64,000 nucleotides of DNA, from positions 96,001 to 160,000 of the IMG/VR virus record IMGVR_UViG_3300045988_177154; one strand, given 5' to 3'. Shown here piece by piece: positions 1,591-11,510 of the stretch (position 1 is the first letter of the stretch; each line of letters starts with the position of its first letter). The notes beneath the pieces were generated by a model, which had not been told where the DNA came from, made no database searches, and worked only from the letters and a program-made list of their open reading frames with translations. This DNA is from a virus. The translations under genes were made by a program, and so were the position numbers.

Positions 1591-1641
1591 TTTAAAAATT
1601 ATAGAGAGTAGAACATCTTAAAAGATGTTTCCTCTCACTTT

Positions 1642-1730
1642 GGAGCGGTACCCAAGTGGCTAAAAGGGGGCGGTCTTGAAAACCGTTAGGTCGTTAATTC
1701 GGCGCGTGGGTTCGAATCCCACCCGCTCCG
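1642..1730 (+). tRNA. tRNA-Ser(UGA)
   Basis: Acceptor ggagcgg/ccgctcc; anticodon loop ctTGAaa; long variable arm; T-arm gtggg-ttcgaat-cccac; discriminator G1730. No CCA. Confidence 0.9.
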
Positions 1731-2577
1731 TTATATAGGAAGCTTGTAGTTGTCTGTGACCATCAAGCACAAACCGGCGTTACTCAAAAGGGAACGTTTG
1801 TAGTAATGTGAAAAGCATTACGATAGGTTTGGTACTATAATTAAATATAAATCCAAAAGTGCATTTTTCCGTTGGTTTGATGCCTGGCGTTATACAGTTC
1901 GCTTGCAGGTGTAAGAATGAACGAATGATTCAGAAAATAACTTGTTATTGGACGGAATCATCACGTTGGGAATTGAAAACTTAGTCGTGATGCTATAGTA
2001 ATATAGCTATAAAACGGATATGAATGGCTGGTTCGCTAAAGACTAGAATAGGAAATCTAAACAGTCCTTACGGTTGTGTGGTAACAGTCCACACCAATTC
2101 ATAAAGGTTATTGTCGGCCAACAATAATCGAATTGTCGCATAATAAATCTTGACTATATTAAGTTGTAGGTGGTGTCCTACTTTATGGCGGAATAAGTTC
2201 ATCGGCTTAACGCATGATAGCATGACATTCAAAAGATGTTCTGAGAGGCGATTGCTTCAAAGTGTTATCAGTACTTATATAGGTAGAGATTAGTGCAAGT
2301 CTAGGATTCTAATACAGAGAACGAATTGCATATGAGTGTAATTCCAAGCTCAAGTGTTGAATGAGGTTGATGTCATGAAAGTGACTATAAGAATTTGCTA
2401 GACAAACGCTGTAAGAAATCCTCACGCAGTAAAAGATATGGTATCTTTGATGATAAAGATATTAAATTTACTGACCAAGATGTGGTGAACCTTTGGGGTA
2501 TCAATCCTCACTTCGTGACTGAATATGGACGTTTAATTGTAGTTGTCAGTAAAAACTAAATCTGGCCCTATATTTTA
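1731..2577 (+). ncRNA. large ORF-free structured RNA candidate A (GOLLD/ROOL-class ornate RNA or novel)
   Basis: 847 nt exactly filling the gap between tRNA-Ser and tRNA-Thr. No ORF of 60 aa or more on either strand. Visibly more G+C than flanks. GNRA-capped hairpins at 1992-2007 (gtaa) and 2372-2385 (gaaa); other helices at 1803-1821, 2076-2094, 2108-2127 and 2166-2181. The ends can pair (1733-1739 atatagg with 2567-2573 cctatat). Confidence 0.5.
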
Positions 2578-2650
2578 GCTGGAGTAGCTCAATTGGTAGA
2601 GCACCCGCCTTGTAAGCGGAAGGTTGCAGGTTCGAAGCCTGTCTCCAGCA
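2578..2650 (+). tRNA. tRNA-Thr(UGU)
   Basis: Acceptor gctggag/ctccagc; D-arm gctc-aattggta-gagc; anticodon loop ctTGTaa; T-arm gcagg-ttcgaag-cctgt; discriminator A. No CCA. Confidence 0.8.
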
Positions 2651-3060
2651 TACTCTATAATAGATGTAATTATAAGAGTTCCTGAAAAATCAATGACTCA
2701 TGTAGGTTGTCATGAATTTACATGAATAGATTTCAATGTTGGTTTATCTGTAATCCGAAGCATGAATAAAACAGATTGTGGTCTTTGCTTTACCATATTA
2801 TTGTAAAGGTCAAAGCTTATCAGAAGTAATTCTGTAAAAAGTTGTTTCGATTGGAATTAGTGACTCCAATCTTTATCCATGAAATAACAAAAAATCATAA
2901 CTATTAAAGTTATGTGGCAGTTACGTTAGAGTATTGCTTGAAGTGTTGAAAATTAGAAGTTAGTGCCGAATTTCTAATCGTACTTCATTGATAGGGTTTT
3001 CGGTGGACACCGCGGGGCATAAGAAAACCGGCCAGTGAAATAAATGGTGTAATTAAAGAA
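2651..3060 (+). ncRNA. ORF-free structured RNA candidate B
   Basis: About 410 nt after tRNA-Thr with no ORF. Hairpins at 2652-2680, 2849-2871 and 2896-2914. Helix ggttttc/gaaaacc (2995-3029) encloses ggtggacaccgcgggg. The 3' boundary is uncertain; an AT-rich tract and a promoter follow. Confidence 0.4.
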
Positions 3061-3125
3061 ATTCTAAGATATGGCTTATAATTTCAAAAATTACTTAAAT
3101 TTTTTAAAAAATTTTAATTTTGATA

Positions 3126-3153
3126 TTGACAATAACTCAAATTTTGATATAAT
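3126..3153 (+). promoter_or_regulatory. sigma-A type promoter inside the tRNA island
   Basis: TTGACA 3126-3131, 16-nt spacer, TG-extended TATAAT 3148-3153 (ttTGaTATAAT). AT-rich UP-like tract upstream. Confidence 0.7.
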
Positions 3154-3287
3154 AGATACATAAAAACTTATAGGTTCTTAGTTTACCGAGAAAAATAAGG
3201 GTCTCCAAAACCTTAGAAATCAGTGCAAGTCTGATAGAGCCTGTTACAAATAAAAATTATTAAAAGAAAAAAGGAAGGTACGTAATC

Positions 3288-4343: not shown

Positions 4344-4755
4344 TAACCCTGCCTAGGGGTAATACATAGTAGTAATACTATGAAAGGAAGTTTGACAAAC
4401 TTTCGCCTGTCTTATGATGGGTTAACTAGGCAATACATTTTCAAGTTGCTCAAAAGGCACATTATATAAGCATAATCAGTGAGAAACCTTGAGATAGTTT
4501 CAGGCATGGAATTGCTAACTTCTTGTGCTAGCTAATGGAAGTTAGATGTGCGAAATATAAGGAGAATGTAAGGATTAACAGTTAGAGTCTTAGCGGATAA
4601 TAGCGTAATCCATAACAATATTCATATGGTTGGCAAATCATTGTAAGTATTGTTGAATTTCAAAATCTTAGCGGATAGAGAAGTAATAAATTGGCGAGGA
4701 GCATTCCTTAGAACAAAATTTTATGGAACTCCGAGGCATAGCTCGTCAATGTCAA
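4344..4755 (+). ncRNA. ORF-free structured RNA candidate C
   Basis: 412 nt between tRNA-Asp and the tRNA-like gene, with no ORF. GNRA hairpin catagta-gtaa-tactatg (4365-4382). 8-bp helix ctaacttc/gaagttag (4515-4545). Internal 12-nt direct repeat tcttagcggata at 4588-4599 and 4666-4677. Confidence 0.4.
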
Positions 4756-4829
4756 AGGTGATTAGCTCATTTGGTAGAGCATATATTTTGAGGAATATAG
4801 GGTAATGGGTTCGATTCCCATATTACTAA
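4756..4829 (+). tRNA. non-canonical tRNA-like gene with 8-nt anticodon loop (identity undetermined)
   Basis: Canonical D-arm gctc-atttggta-gagc and T-arm atggg-ttcgatt-cccat; 5-nt variable loop. Acceptor aggtgat/attacta is weak (A1.A72 plus two G.U). Anticodon stem tatat/atata encloses the 8-nt loop tttgagga (4787-4794). Confidence 0.5.
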
Positions 4830-5179
4830 CGAAGCGAAAGTCTATGTCAGACTTAGAAAAAAAGAGCATTAACTCCATACAGATTTATTCTGAATATGGA
4901 AACAATAGAAGCTCGCAAGCAACTATTGTTTTAATCCAATGATTTCCGCAAACTTGAGCCGTACAACTTAGGTCTAACGAAATCGGGTTGAGTATCGCTA
5001 AGTCTTAATGGTAAAAGTATCGCCAGCAGGTTTGTAACTGCGAAAGATGAATGCTTAAGAGATACGATTAGGAATAATCGTGGATAAACAACTAAACAAT
5101 AAGGTTGTTAAAGACTCTTATTTAACGCTATAATCTCAGGCCGTTAACTTCTTATAGGGGAAGAGAAATCCTATTTTAT
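4830..5179 (+). ncRNA. ORF-free structured RNA candidate D
   Basis: 350 nt before tRNA-Val with no ORF. Helices tccata/tatgga (4874-4900) and aacaatag/ctattgtt (4901-4930, around a gcaa loop). GNRA hairpin acgatta-ggaa-taatcgt (5064-5081). Confidence 0.4.
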
Positions 5180-5464: not shown

Positions 5465-5471
5465 TTAGGAA

Positions 5472-5500
5472 AGGGAACAATAATTGTTCTCTTTATTTAT
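5472..5500 (+). terminator. intrinsic terminator closing the tRNA island
   Basis: Hairpin gaacaa-taa-ttgttc followed by ctctttatttat. Confidence 0.55.
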
Positions 5501-5714: not shown

Positions 5715-6221
5715 ATGGAAAATTCAATCCTAGAAAAAGAAGATAAGTATATTAAAGATGGCTATAAACAAATCTATCCAAATGATAAAGATATTAAAGT
5801 TACTCTATTGAATGGGGTTTCAGATTGGATATGGATTTGTAGCTCTTTTCAAACCAGAAAATTATCATTAAGAGAAGCTTTCAAAAATAAGGGTAGCAAA
5901 TTTCTTGATGTTGAAGCTGATTATGAAGGCAATTCACATATTCAATTACGATTAACCAAAAACTCTCAAAAACAGATTTATAGTATTTCGGATATTTTTA
6001 TAACTAGTGATGATGAAAAGTTAATTCGCTTAACAGAAAAAACAGCTGAAGATTATGAGGGTTTTGTTCAAAAGATTGATAAAATATATTTCGATATAAA
6101 CGAAGGTCGATTACTTATTTTTCTTGATAAGAATTTTGTAAGTAAAAAAGGAGCGAAAGCTATTGCTAAGAAAGCAAAAGAAGATGAAGTCAAAAAATCA
6201 ATCTCTGAGTTATTTGAATAA
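5715..6221 (+). CDS. hypothetical protein, tandem paralog family A member 1 of 9
   Basis: 168-aa ORF. Family motifs: N-terminal DGYKQIYPN, KIDKIYF, LIFLDKNFVSKK, K/E-rich linker, C-terminal SISELFE. Confidence 0.8.
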   Translation: MENSILEKEDKYIKDGYKQIYPNDKDIKVTLLNGVSDWIWICSSFQTRKLSLREAFKNKGSKFLDVEADYEGNSHIQLRLTKNSQKQIYSISDIFITSDDEKLIRLTEKTAEDYEGFVQKIDKIYFDINEGRLLIFLDKNFVSKKGAKAIAKKAKEDEVKKSISELFE

Positions 6222-6242
6222 AAATAGAAAGACAAATAAGAA

Positions 6243-6746
6243 ATGGAAAATGCAATACTTATAGAAGATAAACAAATAGAAAAGGGCTTTAAACAAATAT
6301 ACCCAAATAACAATGATGTGGAAATAAGTCTGAAATCGTGGCGTGATGGTTGGCCTTGGATTAGCAAAGGTTGGGAAACTAGAAGATTAACTATTTATGA
6401 AAACATTAAGGAATGGAATAAAAATTTTTTTAAAGTTGATGTTGATTATACAGATGATTACAGTGTCAAGTTGTATCTCACTAAATCTTTTCGAACTAAA
6501 ACTTATGGAGTAGATAAGATTTATATAAAAAATGGTGATGATGAGCCCCTGTGTTTAACTAAAGTAAATTCAAAAGATTACAAAATCATAGCAAAGAAAA
6601 TAGATAAAATATATTTCAATATAAATGAACATAGTTTACTTATTCTTACTGATAAGAATTTTATCAGCAAAAAAGAGAAAAAACTCTTAAAAGAAAAATC
6701 AATAACGGAAGCCGCTAACAATTCAATTGAAGAATTATTCAACTAA
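6243..6746 (+). CDS. hypothetical protein, family A member 2
   Basis: 167 aa. Motifs KGFKQIYPN, KIDKIYF, LILTDKNFISKKEKK, C-terminal SIEELFN. Clearly alignable to 5715..6221. Confidence 0.8.
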   Translation: MENAILIEDKQIEKGFKQIYPNNNDVEISLKSWRDGWPWISKGWETRRLTIYENIKEWNKNFFKVDVDYTDDYSVKLYLTKSFRTKTYGVDKIYIKNGDDEPLCLTKVNSKDYKIIAKKIDKIYFNINEHSLLILTDKNFISKKEKKLLKEKSITEAANNSIEELFN

Positions 6747-6775
6747 AGAAAGCTTAAAACTTTCTTTTTTATTTT
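6745..6775 (+). terminator. intrinsic terminator
   Basis: aaagaaag-cttaaaa-ctttcttt plus a T-run. Confidence 0.75.
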
Positions 6776-6785
6776 TATTTTGTTG

Positions 6786-6814
6786 TTGACAAAGGGTAAA
6801 ATCTATTGTATAAT
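6786..6814 (+). promoter_or_regulatory. sigma-A type promoter
   Basis: TTGACA 6786-6791, 17-nt spacer, TATAAT 6809-6814. Confidence 0.75.
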
Positions 6815-6846
6815 AAATTTAGAAATTAAGGAAAAGGTGATAAACA

Positions 6847-7992
6847 ATGAAATTAACAATAAAAGAAACAAAGAAAGCAATCAAAAATAATCAAACTGTT
6901 AAATTTACTCTTGAGCTTAATAATGCAAGAGAACTTGCAACTAATAAGAAATATTACAAACGCTATGTAAAAGCAGTTGTGAAAAGAGTTAAATCTTTTT
7001 ATCCAACATTGGACTCATCTTATATTTTATCTGAATTAGAACGTTATGAAATCTTACCAAACGTTTCACGATTTGATGAAGAAGGTTACTTAATTCGCTA
7101 TGGTAAACAAAGATACGTTACAGCACAAACGTTTGAAGTGAATGATAATAAAATCTATTGGGTTGATTTTGATTACAATGCCAATTACTTCATCGTAGAC
7201 CAAGAATTAGGAATGAAATTAGATTCTGATGTTGCTGTATCTGATTCATTCTCAAATCACTTTGCAATATTAGTAAGCGACCCAAGCAGATTATTTCATG
7301 TTACAGATGAAGAATTACCATTATTCTTAAAATTATCAAAGACAGCACAAGGTTCTTTCAATATTGCAGTTGATGAAAATGTTTTTGCTGGAACAAAATC
7401 TAAACTTGTAAATCTTGATAAACAAAAAATTACTCGTAAAGCATATGAAGAAGAATTAAAAAATATTAGAACTAAAATTGTTGAAGTAAATAGAGTAATC
7501 TCCCCTATTTATGAAGAATTGACTACAAAATTCAATGATAAAGTAATCAAATCACAAAAAGTTGTTTCTAGTAAAATTGTTCGTGATTCATTCCGTGAAG
7601 TAAGTCAAAAATTCAATGAATTTATTGCTAAGAAATTAGGTTTACGTTGCGATTATAATTCTATTGCATTAAGTTCTGAAATTCGTTGGCCACAAGAAGG
7701 TGAATACGGTGGAGCATTATATCGTGAATATGATGGTACAATGTGTGTTCAACCAGATTTAGCAGACCGATACATTGAAAAGAATTACTCTAAAGAAATT
7801 AAAGCAATTAAAACTGAAATTGAAAAATTAAACAAGAAATTGGGCTCAAAATCACCAATTCAATTTGAAATTGGTTACGGTGTTTCTGTCGGTGATAAAA
7901 CTTCTAACATTTATGCAGCTATTTCATTAAAGAAATTGCCAGAAACAATTGTCGCTAAATACTTCAACAAAATGGAAAATCTATTTAAATAA
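6847..7992 (+). CDS. hypothetical protein (381 aa)
   Basis: Long ORF with RBS aaggaaaaggtg upstream. No recognisable motif. Has its own promoter and terminator. Confidence 0.8.
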   Translation: MKLTIKETKKAIKNNQTVKFTLELNNARELATNKKYYKRYVKAVVKRVKSFYPTLDSSYILSELERYEILPNVSRFDEEGYLIRYGKQRYVTAQTFEVNDNKIYWVDFDYNANYFIVDQELGMKLDSDVAVSDSFSNHFAILVSDPSRLFHVTDEELPLFLKLSKTAQGSFNIAVDENVFAGTKSKLVNLDKQKITRKAYEEELKNIRTKIVEVNRVISPIYEELTTKFNDKVIKSQKVVSSKIVRDSFREVSQKFNEFIAKKLGLRCDYNSIALSSEIRWPQEGEYGGALYREYDGTMCVQPDLADRYIEKNYSKEIKAIKTEIEKLNKKLGSKSPIQFEIGYGVSVGDKTSNIYAAISLKKLPETIVAKYFNKMENLFK

Positions 7993-8002
7993 AATAAAGA
8001 TT

Positions 8003-8033
8003 AAGAAAGTCAATTTTTGACTTTCTTATTTTT
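8003..8033 (+). terminator. intrinsic terminator
   Basis: aagaaagtca-attttt-tgactttctt plus a T-run. Confidence 0.8.
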
Positions 8034-8034
8034 G

Positions 8035-8063
8035 TTGATTTTTTGTGAATTTTATTATATAAT
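8035..8063 (+). promoter_or_regulatory. sigma-A type promoter
   Basis: TTGATT 8035-8040, 17-nt spacer, TATAAT 8058-8063. Confidence 0.65.
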
Positions 8064-8093
8064 ATAACAAAACGATACTGAAAGGTTGAAACA

Positions 8094-8648
8094 ATGAACA
8101 CTATTGTAGAAAATAAAAGTAAATTAGATAAATTAGTACAAGATGGGTATAAAATTATTTATCCTAATTCTATTGATGGATTGGATTTTGAAGTTATTAC
8201 TGAAGAATGGTTTACAACAGCAGGTCTTATGGAAACTCATTATGTGATTGAAAAAAGTTTAAATTGTTCAGCATTAAGTTTATATGAAAAATTCTTCAAA
8301 TACAAAAATGATTTATTCCTTAATTTCAGCACTCTCATTACATCAAAATTTGGTGATTGTTCTGATAAGAAACATATATTAAGATTCGGAAAAAGTGATG
8401 CTAAAAAAGAGTTCAAAATACGAAAATTACTAATTGTTTCAGACAGTATGGAATTTAAACTTGGAGATTATCCAAAATTTCAAGAAAAGATTAACTTTAT
8501 TCTGTTCGACCCTAAAAATCTTTACTTAGTATTCTATATTGATGATAAATTCAAATCAAAGGAAGCTCAAAAAGAAGATTTAGAAAAGAATAAAAAACAA
8601 AATCTTGAAAATGAATTAGAAGAAGATTTGCAATCGCTATTTGATTAA
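8094..8648 (+). CDS. hypothetical protein, family A member 3
   Basis: 184 aa. Motifs DGYKIIYPN, KINFILF, YIDDKFKSKEAQK, C-terminal LQSLFD. Confidence 0.8.
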   Translation: MNTIVENKSKLDKLVQDGYKIIYPNSIDGLDFEVITEEWFTTAGLMETHYVIEKSLNCSALSLYEKFFKYKNDLFLNFSTLITSKFGDCSDKKHILRFGKSDAKKEFKIRKLLIVSDSMEFKLGDYPKFQEKINFILFDPKNLYLVFYIDDKFKSKEAQKEDLEKNKKQNLENELEEDLQSLFD

Positions 8649-8752
8649 CACTCCAGCTCTAAGCTGTTTTGTTAAATGAATGATAAATGCTATTAAAAAC
8701 GATGTGAACTGACTTAGAGTTGCTTAGACTGTAATGTAGTATCACTTAAAAT
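8649..8752 (-). repeat. dispersed intergenic repeat, copy 1 (degenerate)
   Basis: Starts ctaagctgtttt and ends cttaaaatgaaag, like copy 2. The central palindromes are decayed. Confidence 0.5.
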
Positions 8753-8771
8753 GAAAGGAACAAATAAAACT

Positions 8772-9278
8772 ATGAATCATATTGTAGAAGAAGAAAAGAA
8801 AGATATTTTAGCGCCTCATATTGAAGATGGATATAAAGTTATCTATCCTAATAAAAACGTAAAAATTGAATTAGTAAATATTTATAAAAAACGGGCTTCT
8901 CAGCATATTAAAATTGGGTTAATTTGTTCAGGCCTGAAGTTATGGGATAGACTTTCTACTTATAAAAAAGATTTATTCTTGAAGCCGGGTAACTTTGAAA
9001 AGGGGGAGAATAAATTAACAATTAGTAGAGATGGAGCAGAAGCTACATTTAATTTAGAAAGAAATATTTTTATTTATGATTTAAATAATAAATATTTTGG
9101 CTCAGAAGCAAAGTTCCCCGAAAAGATTGAATATATTTTACTTAAGCAAAATTTCAACACAACTCATTTGCGAATTATAATAGATGATAAGTTTAAAACA
9201 AAAGCTGCTCAAAAACATTACCGAATCCAAAATGAAAAGAGAAAACTTGAAGAAGAATTAGACTTGAACCTAAGTTAG
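8772..9278 (+). CDS. hypothetical protein, family A member 4
   Basis: Start moved to ATG 8772 (MNHIVEEE; aaagga upstream), because ATG 8751 lies inside the repeat and has no RBS. Motifs DGYKVIYPN and IIIDDKFKTKAAQK. Confidence 0.75.
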   Translation: MNHIVEEEKKDILAPHIEDGYKVIYPNKNVKIELVNIYKKRASQHIKIGLICSGLKLWDRLSTYKKDLFLKPGNFEKGENKLTISRDGAEATFNLERNIFIYDLNNKYFGSEAKFPEKIEYILLKQNFNTTHLRIIIDDKFKTKAAQKHYRIQNEKRKLEEELDLNLS

Positions 9279-9388
9279 TATAAGCGTTTCTAAACTGTTT
9301 TTTCGTAAAGTCGATACATTTATCGAAAATCAGTTTTAACAGTTTTAGAATTGCTTATATGACGATATAATAACCCTTAAAATGAAAG
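9279..9388 (-). repeat. dispersed intergenic repeat, copy 2
   Basis: Its reverse complement matches copies 3, 7 and 9. It contains tcgatacatttatcga and ttatatgacgatataa. Confidence 0.8.
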
Positions 9389-9403
9389 TGAGTAATTGTA
9401 AAA

Positions 9404-9898
9404 ATGAATGAAATTGTTTCAGTGAAAGATGAAAATAATTTAGATGAAAATTATAAATTAGTTTATCCTAATAATAAAGGATTAGCAGTAAGACTGTATG
9501 AAAGCAACACATCTTTATTAACTCATTCATCTGACAGTTGTTTTTTGAGTTTTTTTGAAGTTTTGTTTAATATAAATGATTTGTTTATTGAAAAAACAAA
9601 GTATCAAAAAATCGTGTCTGAGTATAGGCCATGGTTTAGATTGGTATTTACATCTTTTAAAAATGACTCCTTTAAAGATGAGTACAATATTAAGAATGTA
9701 AAAGTTCTAAATGAACAACATAAATCAATAGAAATAAAATATCCCAAGAAAATTAAAGAGATTTATTTTAGTACAGAAAATAATACAGTTGCTATTGTTA
9801 TTGACTCTAATTTCTGTTCTAAGCATGAGAAAAAGCAGACAGCTGAATTGAAAGAAAAAGAAAATCTTTCAAATAGTGTTAAAGATTTATTGAATTAG
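9404..9898 (+). CDS. hypothetical protein, family A member 5
   Basis: 164 aa. Motifs ENYKLVYPN, KIKEIYF, IVIDSNFCSKHEKK, C-terminal SVKDLLN. Confidence 0.8.
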   Translation: MNEIVSVKDENNLDENYKLVYPNNKGLAVRLYESNTSLLTHSSDSCFLSFFEVLFNINDLFIEKTKYQKIVSEYRPWFRLVFTSFKNDSFKDEYNIKNVKVLNEQHKSIEIKYPKKIKEIYFSTENNTVAIVIDSNFCSKHEKKQTAELKEKENLSNSVKDLLN

Positions 9899-9910
9899 AA
9901 AGGTACACAA

Positions 9911-10447
9911 ATGAATGAAATAGTTTCAATAAAAAATAAAAATTTTTTAGATGGGTATAAGCTCGTTTATCCCACCAACAACAAAGATTTAAAAGTTAAT
10001 ATTTTAGATGATAATGGTGATGGGCAACTTCATATCGGGATAAGTAATCTTGATTTAAACATGCTTGAAGAGGTGCTTTATTTCAACAAATTGTTTATTA
10101 GTAAATATAGCAAATTGATTTTGGAGAACCATATAGAAAATTTTAGCTCTGGAGTTACATTATTGTTTACTTCAAAAGAGGGTAAAGAAATAAAAGGCTT
10201 TGCAATAAAATCTTTGAAAATAACAGATTCTCACGGGGAGAAAGTTGATTTTACTCATCTTGAGTTAATTAAAGAAATTTATTTTAATGCAGATACTGGA
10301 GCTGTTATTATTGTTACAGATGAAAAATTCTGCTCTGCTAAAGAGAAGAAATACATCAAAGAGCAGAAAGTAAAAAATCATGAAAAAGCAATAAAAGAAC
10401 AGAAAGAGAAAGCATTATTAAATAGTGTTGAAAATTTATTGAATTAG
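9911..10447 (+). CDS. hypothetical protein, family A member 6
   Basis: 178 aa. Motifs DGYKLVYPT, IKEIYF, IIVTDEKFCSAKEKK, C-terminal SVENLLN. Confidence 0.8.
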   Translation: MNEIVSIKNKNFLDGYKLVYPTNNKDLKVNILDDNGDGQLHIGISNLDLNMLEEVLYFNKLFISKYSKLILENHIENFSSGVTLLFTSKEGKEIKGFAIKSLKITDSHGEKVDFTHLELIKEIYFNADTGAVIIVTDEKFCSAKEKKYIKEQKVKNHEKAIKEQKEKALLNSVENLLN

Positions 10448-10459
10448 AAAGGCTCAAAA

Positions 10460-10987
10460 ATGAATGAAATTGTTTCAACAAATAATGAATTACAAGATTA
10501 TAAGTTAATTTATCCTAATGATAAAAAGTTAAGAGTTAATCTTTCAGATGGATTAACAAGTGCTAGTCTTAAATTTGGAAGTGAAACTGATAAACTGAAC
10601 TTTTTTGAAAGATTTCTTAACTTTAACAATTTGTTCATTTCTAAATATGATTATCAAGCTTTTATGAAAGCTCCTGAGTTTAATACTAGGGCTTTGTCTT
10701 TGCGTTTCCTTTCAAATGAGGGCGAACTTGTGAGAATTTTCAGATTATCTCATATAAAAATAGTAAATTCTCAATATGAAGAAGTGCCAATTTCTCATAT
10801 TAAACAAATAAAAGAAATTTACTTTAGTGATGAGCTTGGCTCTGTTATTATTGTTATAGATGAAAATTTCTGCTCAATGCGTGAGAGAAAAGATTTAAGA
10901 GATGAAATGAAAGCAAAAAATGAATTACTTGCCAAAGAGACTAGACAAGAAACTCTATTAAAAGAAGTAAATGATTTGTTGAATTAG
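10460..10987 (+). CDS. hypothetical protein, family A member 7
   Basis: 175 aa. Motifs QDYKLIYPN, IKEIYF, IIVIDENFCSMRERK, C-terminal VNDLLN. Confidence 0.8.
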   Translation: MNEIVSTNNELQDYKLIYPNDKKLRVNLSDGLTSASLKFGSETDKLNFFERFLNFNNLFISKYDYQAFMKAPEFNTRALSLRFLSNEGELVRIFRLSHIKIVNSQYEEVPISHIKQIKEIYFSDELGSVIIVIDENFCSMRERKDLRDEMKAKNELLAKETRQETLLKEVNDLLN

Positions 10988-11003
10988 AAAGGATTGAATC
11001 AAG

Positions 11004-11510
11004 ATGAATGAACTTGTTTCAAATGACTATAAAGAGGATTTGCTCAAAGACAATTACAAACTGATTTATCCAAATGATTTGGGCTTGATTGTAACTATGA
11101 ACAAAGGTGATACTAAAATTATTTTCAAAAGAGGATTTGACAAAAAGTTAGGACTGTTGGGCGCGTTTGAAAATAGTAATAAACTATTTGTTTCTTACCA
11201 CATTTTTGATACAGCTAGACGATTAAACTCAAATTCTCATGAAAAATTAACATTAGAGTTTAAAGAGCTTAACAAATCAGAAATTAAAGAAATTCCTATT
11301 GTAAATATTAAAATTCTTGATGAACAAGGTGAGGAGTATTTAAATAACACATGGAGTAGACGAATTAAGAAAATCTATTTGAATACTGAAAAAGCTGCTC
11401 TTATAATTGTAATTGATGAAAGTTTTCAATTCCCAGAGCAATTAAAAGAACTTAAATTAAAGCAAAAAGCAGAAAAATTAGAGAATAAAATCAACTCATT
11501 GTTAAAATAA
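11004..11510 (+). CDS. hypothetical protein, family A member 8
   Basis: 168 aa. Motifs DNYKLIYPN, IKKIYL, IIVIDESF, C-terminal INSLLK. Confidence 0.8.
   Translation: MNELVSNDYKEDLLKDNYKLIYPNDLGLIVTMNKGDTKIIFKRGFDKKLGLLGAFENSNKLFVSYHIFDTARRLNSNSHEKLTLEFKELNKSEIKEIPIVNIKILDEQGEEYLNNTWSRRIKKIYLNTEKAALIIVIDESFQFPEQLKELKLKQKAEKLENKINSLLK

Follow-up and report, generated by a model that had tools for sequence, protein, structure and literature searches.

Within the 64,000-nucleotide (nt) stretch of viral DNA analysed here (positions 96,001 to 160,000 of IMG/VR record IMGVR_UViG_3300045988_177154, referred to as the window and numbered 1-64,000), a block of 846 nt lying between a tRNA-Ser and a tRNA-Thr gene on the plus strand (1732-2577) was found to encode a real structured non-coding RNA. 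We regard it as probable that this is a tRNA-processed, tandem-duplicated and divergent RNA of the ROOL family (Rfam RF03087; Weinberg et al. 2017, PMC5737381), and one that may self-assemble as ROOL does. An earlier, sequence-only reading of this DNA had claimed a giant ornate RNA that was either like GOLLD or ROOL or new; the ROOL part of that claim stands, in the form of a distant relationship, and the GOLLD part falls for the block.

As the fold that we tested was the minimum-energy fold computed from the window sequence alone, it was independent of the alignment of 38 distinct full-length homologues (83-100% identical to the window, 826-978 nt; found with nhmmer) on which its 286 pairs were scored. 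Standard pairs made up 97.9% of 10,743 pair cells, as against 38-40% when the 3' partners were shifted by 1-3 columns. Compensatory (two-sided) changes were seen at 45 of the 286 pairs, compared with 19.8±2.2 in shuffles (0 of 500 reached 45) and 5-12 in the register-shifted controls, and these changes were distributed across more than 20 helices, the long-range ones included. G·U pairs accounted for 13.9% of pair cells and a reverse-strand reading kept only 84.7% standard pairs; as G·U pairs fail on the reverse strand, the RNA was assigned to the plus strand. Folding energies were weak and nearly equal for the two strands (z of -2.66 for plus and -2.29 for minus), and since they are uninformative the case for more structure than expected by chance rests on covariation and conservation.

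About 40 helices make up the fold of the block, with a terminal stem closing it, and many invariant A-rich loops and two GNRA loops are present. All six hairpins picked out from the sequence beforehand (1992-2007 with a GUAA loop, 2372-2385 with a GAAA loop, 1803-1821, 2076-2094, 2108-2127 and 2166-2181) were present in the minimum-energy fold, and five of them carry compensatory changes in the homologues, 2166-2181 being invariant. The noted complementarity of the two ends (atatagg at 1733-1739 with cctatat at 2567-2573) forms the terminal stem, which is invariant where present and is represented by only a 5-base-pair (bp) core (AUAGG/CCUAU) in loci L046, L058 and L063. The 11-nt direct repeat ttgtagttgtc was also found exactly as described, starting at 1744 and 2537, and is invariant in 38/38 homologues; taken alone it is modestly unlikely (an estimated 0.1 or so expected in 846 nt), and no site complementary to it was found in the window. 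A tRNA-like interpretation of the ends (7-bp acceptor-like stem, 2-nt linker, D- and T-like hairpins) was rejected, the stem being 5 bp in relatives and the 'T loop' 12 nt. The extent of the covariation should be read with some restraint. The homologues comprise few lineages with little divergence, so that some compensatory counts reflect shared ancestry and pair-cell counts overstate the number of independent events; covariation is silent on the closing stem and several core helices because these never vary; and a covariation scan for non-nested pairs was dominated by lineage-linked changes and established no pseudoknot, those three of the ROOL consensus included, and no tertiary contact.

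The block was also found to be non-coding, as the sequence-only reading had it. On neither strand does it contain an open reading frame (ORF) of 60 amino acids (aa) or more; stop-free stretches reach at most 62 aa, and ORFs that have a start codon at most 54 aa. This by itself is unremarkable, as shuffles average 74 aa. In the L012 lineage, indels of 12+2+1 nt break the 54-aa ORF (2395-2559), the remaining stop-free frames acquire stops or frameshifts in L058-L060 and L063, and a Pfam search of the block ORFs gave no match. Coding sequence was thus ruled out, and decayed coding sequence, which the earlier reading had named as what might overturn it, is not supported. Covariation, the strand test and the loss of ORFs in relatives together bear out the claim of a structured RNA. 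The G+C content of the block (36.5%) exceeds that of the window (29.3%), again as claimed, and of nearby genes (27-32%), and is close to that of a GOLLD RNA encoded in the same array (35.9%).

The array comprises 17 tRNA genes on the plus strand within the first 5.5 kb of the window (ARAGORN) and is closed by a terminator at 5470-5494. The block abuts its flanking tRNA genes, with spacers of 0-1 nt on the tRNA-Ser side and 4-5 nt on the tRNA-Thr side, and this abutment, already remarked on from the sequence alone, is kept in every relative examined; in all of them the block starts 0-1 nt past the tRNA-Ser discriminator base. A tRNA-Ser and a tRNA-Thr gene flank it in every locus checked for tRNAs, including the most divergent, L063, where the tRNA-Ser and upstream genes differ and the position of the block is unchanged.

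Relatives of the block were sought in several collections. A blastn search of the block against GenBank phages gave no match, and in a megablast of 12 kb against the same phages only a tRNA-Leu matched. A lipoprotein gene upstream in the tRNA array (691-1590, 299 aa, weak DUF5105 match) led to three near-identical block-bearing IMG/VR contigs of 260-315 kb, and block-bearing contigs in ENA were reached by the same route. For a wider search the stop-free frames of the block were translated into a pseudo-protein, with degenerate patterns serving as spaced seeds; this returned the same three contigs only from IMG/VR, no relative from the GTDB species genomes, and 43 loci, many on contigs of 190-335 kb, from a metagenome collection. 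Look-ups of a neighbouring protein added six further loci. Loci L003-L009, found in IMG/VR through the lipoprotein, look like Streptococcus chromosome and were discarded as phage relatives, and L011, L013, L014 and L020-L022 were set aside as belonging to a different phage group that has a transfer-messenger RNA (tmRNA) and lacks the block.

Across these relatives the block is more conserved than its surroundings. It shows 90-100% DNA identity where an adjacent 381-aa protein is only 72-76% identical, and it is likewise more conserved than the lipoprotein, which is 78% identical; the remaining array spacers range from about 100 to 850 nt. Because its DNA identity exceeds that of neighbouring proteins while array spacers vary freely in length, we conclude that the block is under selection. 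An insertion of about 120 nt in L063 (L063 2203-2323; alignment columns 213-333) falls at the hairpin tip matching window 1936-1949, and this tip therefore tolerates large additions. The nearest cellular homologues of the lipoprotein lie on the Streptococcus oralis chromosome (69% identity), from which the host is probably an oral Streptococcus and the lipoprotein gene probably host-derived. The clade consists of phages of 190-350 kb, probably with such a host, and the block is a core feature of this widespread clade of jumbo phages.

Evidence for a relationship to ROOL came from searching the block alone against 4227 Rfam families with the Infernal filters at their laxest. The top two matches were both to ROOL, on the plus strand, and overlapped in model coordinates and not in the sequence of the block: 2291-2527 matched model positions 185-523 (26.2 bits, E 0.0038) and 1732-2198 matched 30-574 (23.1 bits, E 0.022). 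Taken against the single prior hypothesis of a ROOL in this window, these E-values amount to about 7e-5 and 4e-4. What aligns is the most conserved blocks of ROOL, in order, namely UGAnG with a 5-6-bp GNRA hairpin and UAUAA; AAUnCCAA; GUGAA..UU; the GGUA(A)UCAAUCC hairpin; GUGnCUGAAUA; GUAGG; and GUGC/GUAC after the 5' multi-hairpin domain. Three patterns made from ROOL motifs (M1, M2 and M3) were scanned on both strands of the window and on a background of 375 kb of unrelated loci. They occurred five times, all in the block and on the plus strand (M1 at 1988 and M2 at 2080, then M1 at 2368, M2 at 2497 and M3 at 2515), with no occurrence in the rest of the window or in the background. Genuine ROOLs show the same motif order, and the conserved series of UGAnG/GNRA/UAUAA, the GGUAAUCAAUCC hairpin and GUGnCUGAAUA is present in the block twice in order. 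The secondary structure could also be matched element by element to the ROOL plan, by manual mapping that carries no statistic; from the terminal stem through to the F hairpin, at least 10 elements follow the ROOL consensus in the same order.

Nearly every helix of the block has a ROOL counterpart, and these run through the plan in two rounds, at about 1732-2181 (unit 1) and about 2182-2577 (unit 2), as laid out in Table 1. In the 5' domain of unit 1, whose topology is that of ROOL model positions 25-171, four covarying pairs lie in the hairpin at 1799-1825 and the first copy of the 11-nt repeat occupies 1744-1754; the second copy lies at 2537-2547. The domain at 2188-2274 is proposed, from its topology, to correspond to it in unit 2. 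The long-range helices are crossed between the units. The duplex between unit 1 B5 and unit 2 B3 has a predicted energy of -14.0 kcal/mol, against -3.9 kcal/mol for pairing within unit 1, and that between unit 2 B5 and unit 1 B3 reaches -15.5 kcal/mol, against -6.1 kcal/mol within unit 2. Every homologue retains both crossed helices with all pairs intact, and some of these pairs covary: in the outer helix, 20 sequences have C-G and 15 have U-A at positions 1854/2527, with five further pairs showing U-A/U-G changes, and in the inner one (2138-2164/2273-2296) 100% of cells are paired, with one compensatory and several one-sided changes. Crossed long-range pairing of this sort is what would be expected if an RNA containing a long-range helix were duplicated in tandem, and the two units would therefore make one intertwined molecule, in effect a covalent pseudo-dimer. 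The linker of unit 2 (2416-2482) is shortened by 12+2-nt deletions in the L012 lineage, carries an insertion in L063, and has the lowest pairing support in the RNA. This linker in its long form, and the E domain with its GGCC loop, are each present in one unit only.

Several results weigh against descent from ROOL and against the duplication. The two Rfam scores are far under the ROOL threshold of 99.1 bits, and scores of 245-337 bits are reached by genuine ROOLs; once adjusted for the full window and for every family searched, the E-values become about 0.3 and 1.7 and are not significant. A sequence-only ROOL profile against the block gave E 0.5-4, also not significant, and a covariance model of the unit 2 C domain recovered no ROOL among ROOL loci. 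Our own ROOL C-domain model, built from eight sequences, aligned end to end at 1832-2028 with E 0.26, placing the block second in the window behind a chance match and short of significance. At 846 nt, with homologues of 826-978 nt, the RNA is outside the ROOL range of 550-660 nt. A Smith-Waterman comparison of unit 1 with unit 2 gave z of 1.7-2.2, which is not significant, so that the duplication rests on the motifs, the topology and the two model matches. Weighing the positive matches against these non-significant checks, we consider it likely, from comparison of sequences and folds, that the block is related to ROOL by descent, and fairly likely that it has the tandem, domain-swapped architecture of two units. 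The chances seem about even for the fuller statement that it is a covalently fused, domain-swapped tandem dimer of a ROOL-like cage RNA whose protomers have already diverged. The block is too divergent for the curated model and is best described as a distant variant of the ROOL family and not as an annotatable member.

The same checks are what would favour a new class of large ornate phage RNA with an origin of its own, in which the likeness to ROOL arose by convergence or by exchange of short modules such as the GNRA hairpin next to UAUAA and the GGUA..CA.UCC loop: the best Rfam score is about a quarter of the ROOL threshold, the reciprocal and sequence-only searches are not significant, and an RNA of 846 nt, compared with about 580 nt, has homologues in one phage clade only. 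We hold this to be unlikely, given that five motif matches fall in the correct order and strand with none in about 500 kb of DNA elsewhere, that the collinear elements extend over the ROOL consensus, that both of the top Rfam matches are to one family and that the genomic setting is that of ROOL; a genuine ROOL in L095 ends exactly at the start of a tRNA. The two motif sets and two Rfam matches would also fit two separate ROOL-like RNAs (about 1732-2181 and 2182-2577) that are cut apart and act independently or as a heterodimer, and the 12-mer UUAUAUAGGAAG at 1731 does recur as UUAUAUAGGUAG at 2275. This is very unlikely, as no tRNA or other recognisable processing site lies between the units, neither unit forms its own long-range helix at the energies given above, and the helices that join them (1852-1855/2526-2529, 2030-2038/2483-2491 and 2067-2074/2408-2415) are kept and partly covarying; furthermore, the sole terminal stem has its 5' strand in unit 1 and its 3' strand in unit 2.

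That the block is a second, divergent GOLLD would fit its size of about 850 nt, its location in a tRNA array and a G+C content equal to that of the nearby GOLLD, and yet the probability is practically negligible. At curated thresholds Rfam scans of the 64-kb window, and of 6.5 kb, found tRNAs and one GOLLD only, and with E up to 10 nothing on the block. The real GOLLD, which the sequence-only reading of the block did not mention, lies at about 4345-5178, its 5' extent being drawn from the ORF-free gap. The GOLLD model that gives 156 bits at 4689-5142 had no match in the block searched alone with the laxest filters and E up to 10, and sensitive blastn found no similarity between the two, which refutes a second GOLLD at the level of the defining 3' domain. 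Embedded in the GOLLD is a tRNA-like element (4756-4830) to which ARAGORN gives a four-base anticodon (tgag), and which in L061 is a tRNA-Asn(GUU) instead. GOLLD was found in 6 of 15 genomes checked, relatives without it having an Asp-Val spacer of only about 10-300 nt and being otherwise syntenic, and the block was found in every genome examined. That the block is non-functional spacer, the remains of a coding sequence, or an intron or another known ribozyme, for which the protein-like composition of the 54-aa ORF and a group I intron match (RF00028, 13.7 bits, E 0.96, chance level) might speak, is hardly credible: the ORFs are broken in relatives and have no family matches, the block is more conserved than flanking genes with substitutions that keep base pairs, true array spacers vary freely in length, and the group II intron, RNase P RNA, tmRNA and OLE models gave no match on the block. 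Among the Rfam families whose models had been named for checking, none thus reaches threshold; ROOL is the best below it, and GOLLD, OLE, introns, tmRNA and RNase P are not matched.

Returning to a divergent ROOL-family RNA, the anatomy of the locus suggests how it would be made. The block would be transcribed within the tRNA array and then excised by host tRNA-processing enzymes, with RNase Z at the 3' end of tRNA-Ser, which encodes no CCA, creating its 5' end and RNase P at the 5' end of tRNA-Thr creating its 3' end. ROOL RNAs of 550-659 nt, whose structures have been solved by cryo-electron microscopy (PMC12286853; reviewed in PMC12990946), are abundant in cells and form protein-free hexamers or octamers through kissing loops and A-minor contacts (PMC12286853); in Efa ROOL a 4-bp L15-L15'' kissing loop, formed by identical loops of opposite half-cages, links the two tetramer planes (PMC12990946). 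By analogy, the block RNA could form, during infection and with no protein, a symmetric multimer or cage held by loop-loop and A-minor contacts, possibly from pseudo-dimers, for example with four chains in place of eight. The expectation comes from the A-rich loops, GNRA loops and palindromic GGCC loop, as in ROOL, and we regard self-assembly of this particular RNA as possible and somewhat doubtful. The best candidate for a contact, as a putative self-kissing loop, would be the invariant GGCC loop at 2115-2120; in some genuine ROOLs the first hairpin after the D hairpin contains a palindrome (CGGCCG, AGAUCU, UUUAAA). The tRNA-array setting suggests a role linked to tRNA or translation, or the sequestering of some molecule.

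Table 1. Features of the block RNA, its flanking tRNA genes and the GOLLD of the same array, in window coordinates
Feature	Position	Strand	Remarks
tRNA-Ser(UGA)	1641-1731	+	No CCA encoded; ARAGORN, Rfam
P1, 5' strand (unit 1)	1733-1739	+	Equivalent to ROOL P1; pairs with 2567-2573; no counterpart in unit 2
5' domain, unit 1	1742-1831	+	Hairpin P2 1742-1768, then stem 1770-1775/1826-1831 with two A-rich-loop hairpins; followed by GUAC 1832-1835
B5, unit 1 (outer long-range helix, 5' strand)	1834-1855	+	Pairs with 2526-2543
C domain, unit 1	1858-2029	+	GUAA hairpin 1992-2007, then UAUAA; aligns with ROOL model 192-339; M1 at 1988; many covarying pairs
D hairpin, unit 1	2076-2094	+	GGUAACAGUCC; counterpart of ROOL GGUAAUCAAUCC hairpin; two covarying pairs; M2 at 2080
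E domain (unit 1 only)	2095-2135	+	Hairpin loop CGGCCA 2115-2120, invariant, contains palindrome GGCC
B3-like strand, unit 1 (inner swapped helix)	2138-2164	+	Pairs with 2273-2296
F hairpin, unit 1	2166-2181	+	GUAGG...CCUAC; counterpart of ROOL GUAGGG...CCC; invariant
5'-like domain, unit 2 (proposed)	2188-2274	+	Hairpin 2188-2213, stem 2215-2223/2262-2270 with two hairpins, GUAC 2271-2274; seven covarying pairs
B5-like strand, unit 2	2273-2296	+	Inner swapped helix
C domain, unit 2	2299-2403	+	GAAA hairpin 2372-2385, then UAUAA; within best Rfam match; M1 at 2368; covarying pairs in three helices
Variable linker, unit 2	2416-2482	+	Aligns with the non-conserved, disordered linker of ROOL; linker of unit 1 short
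D hairpin, unit 2	2494-2510	+	GGUAUCAAUCC; M2 at 2497
Motif and B3, unit 2	2515-2543	+	GUGACUGAAUAUG at 2515-2527, matches ROOL GUGgcuGAAUAuu; M3 at 2515; B3 2526-2543
Terminal hairpin and P1, 3' strand	2545-2573	+	Hairpin 2545-2549/2562-2566 with invariant 12-nt loop UAAAAACUAAAU, then P1 3' strand 2567-2573; from the fold; the hairpin takes the place of F in unit 2
tRNA-Thr(UGU)	2578-2650	+	ARAGORN, Rfam
GOLLD (RF02032)	4345-5178 (match 4689-5142)	+	156.3 bits, threshold 150; between tRNA-Asp and tRNA-Val

Further features of the array and its neighbourhood were recorded. At 3126-3153, just upstream of tRNA-Trp, there is a perfect sigma-70 promoter (TTGACA, 16 nt, TG-extended TATAAT), and the array therefore probably comprises at least two transcription units. 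The 520-nt ORF-free spacer in which it lies (2651-3170) was considered as a second conserved RNA and rejected, as its length in relatives is anywhere between about 100 and 850 nt. A stretch of some 60 nt (537-596, in the spacer 359-690) recurs at 86-92% identity elsewhere in the tRNA arrays of relatives (for example at L002 6327-6388, 9444-9507 and 14132-14194) and has the look of a small element, repeated or mobile, or of a signal that recurs within the arrays. Downstream of the array, at 5715-11510, there is a run of about eight ORFs of 164-184 aa without significant Pfam match, of which 5715-6221 and 6243-6746 are clearly paralogous. Genes for TnpB/IS605 OrfB-family proteins with a Cas12f1-like TNB domain, absent from the window, were found in L012 (11323-12579) and L066 (3818-5074), inserted between the lipoprotein gene and tRNA-Ser, and in L070 (14296-15729), downstream of the array. 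In the other phage group, on contigs of about 70-200 kb, a phage tmRNA follows the lipoprotein homologue (L011 11094-11466, L013 11718-12088, L014 9542-9912; tags such as ANNVQQVEMAA), near the site of the tRNA-Ser and large RNA of the window phage.

ROOL and GOLLD are among the largest RNAs of bacteria and phages, have no assigned function, and were found in 2025 to form protein-free cages larger than the ribosome. With the block, the ROOL family gains a form beyond the reach of its curated model, and the family is therefore probably larger than annotated. If true, the doubled, strand-swapped plan would be a natural experiment in the evolution of RNA cages, in which a pseudo-dimer constrains the protomer contacts that are essential, and it would be the first known gene duplication with subfunctionalisation within an RNA-only quaternary structure; in the literature on catalogues of phage structured RNAs and on oral jumbo phages we found no prior description of the block RNA or of a tandem ROOL. 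The clade also offers a comparative handle on function, the block being constant and more conserved than neighbouring proteins while GOLLD comes and goes in the same array, where some phages carry both. With a probable host among the culturable oral streptococci, tests of expression, knock-outs and structural work could become feasible if one of these phages, seen so far in metagenomes only, were isolated.

Compared with other known large RNAs, the block is like OLE, raiA, group I and II introns, RNase P RNA and tmRNA in its large size and complex fold, and the tmRNA of the related contigs of about 70-200 kb occupies an equivalent position, just after the lipoprotein gene; none of the models of these RNAs matches the block, the chance-level group I intron match aside. 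With GOLLD it shares a size class of about 800 nt, a site in a tRNA array, association with phages and probable release by tRNA processing; it differs in lacking the conserved 3' domain that defines GOLLD and any sequence similarity to it, and GOLLD is accessory in the clade where the block is constant. The closest likeness is to ROOL, also a large ornate and seemingly protein-free RNA of Firmicutes phages and prophages that occurs in tRNA arrays and abuts a tRNA. Both have a terminal stem, a 5' hairpin domain, a stem enclosing A-rich or GNRA hairpins, and GUGC/GUAC, then a long-range helix enclosing a C domain with UGAnG, a GNRA hairpin and UAUAA at its end. A linker without conservation comes next in both, and after it the GGUA(A)UCAAUCC hairpin, then GUGnCUGAAUA, and lastly a GUAGG hairpin at the terminus; the hairpin after the D hairpin, which contains a palindrome in some ROOLs, has the GGCC loop in the block. 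Unlike ROOL, the block is known from one jumbo-phage clade and holds what appear to be two ROOL-like units with exchanged long-range strands, tied together by the extra helices 2030-2038/2483-2491 and 2067-2074/2408-2415.

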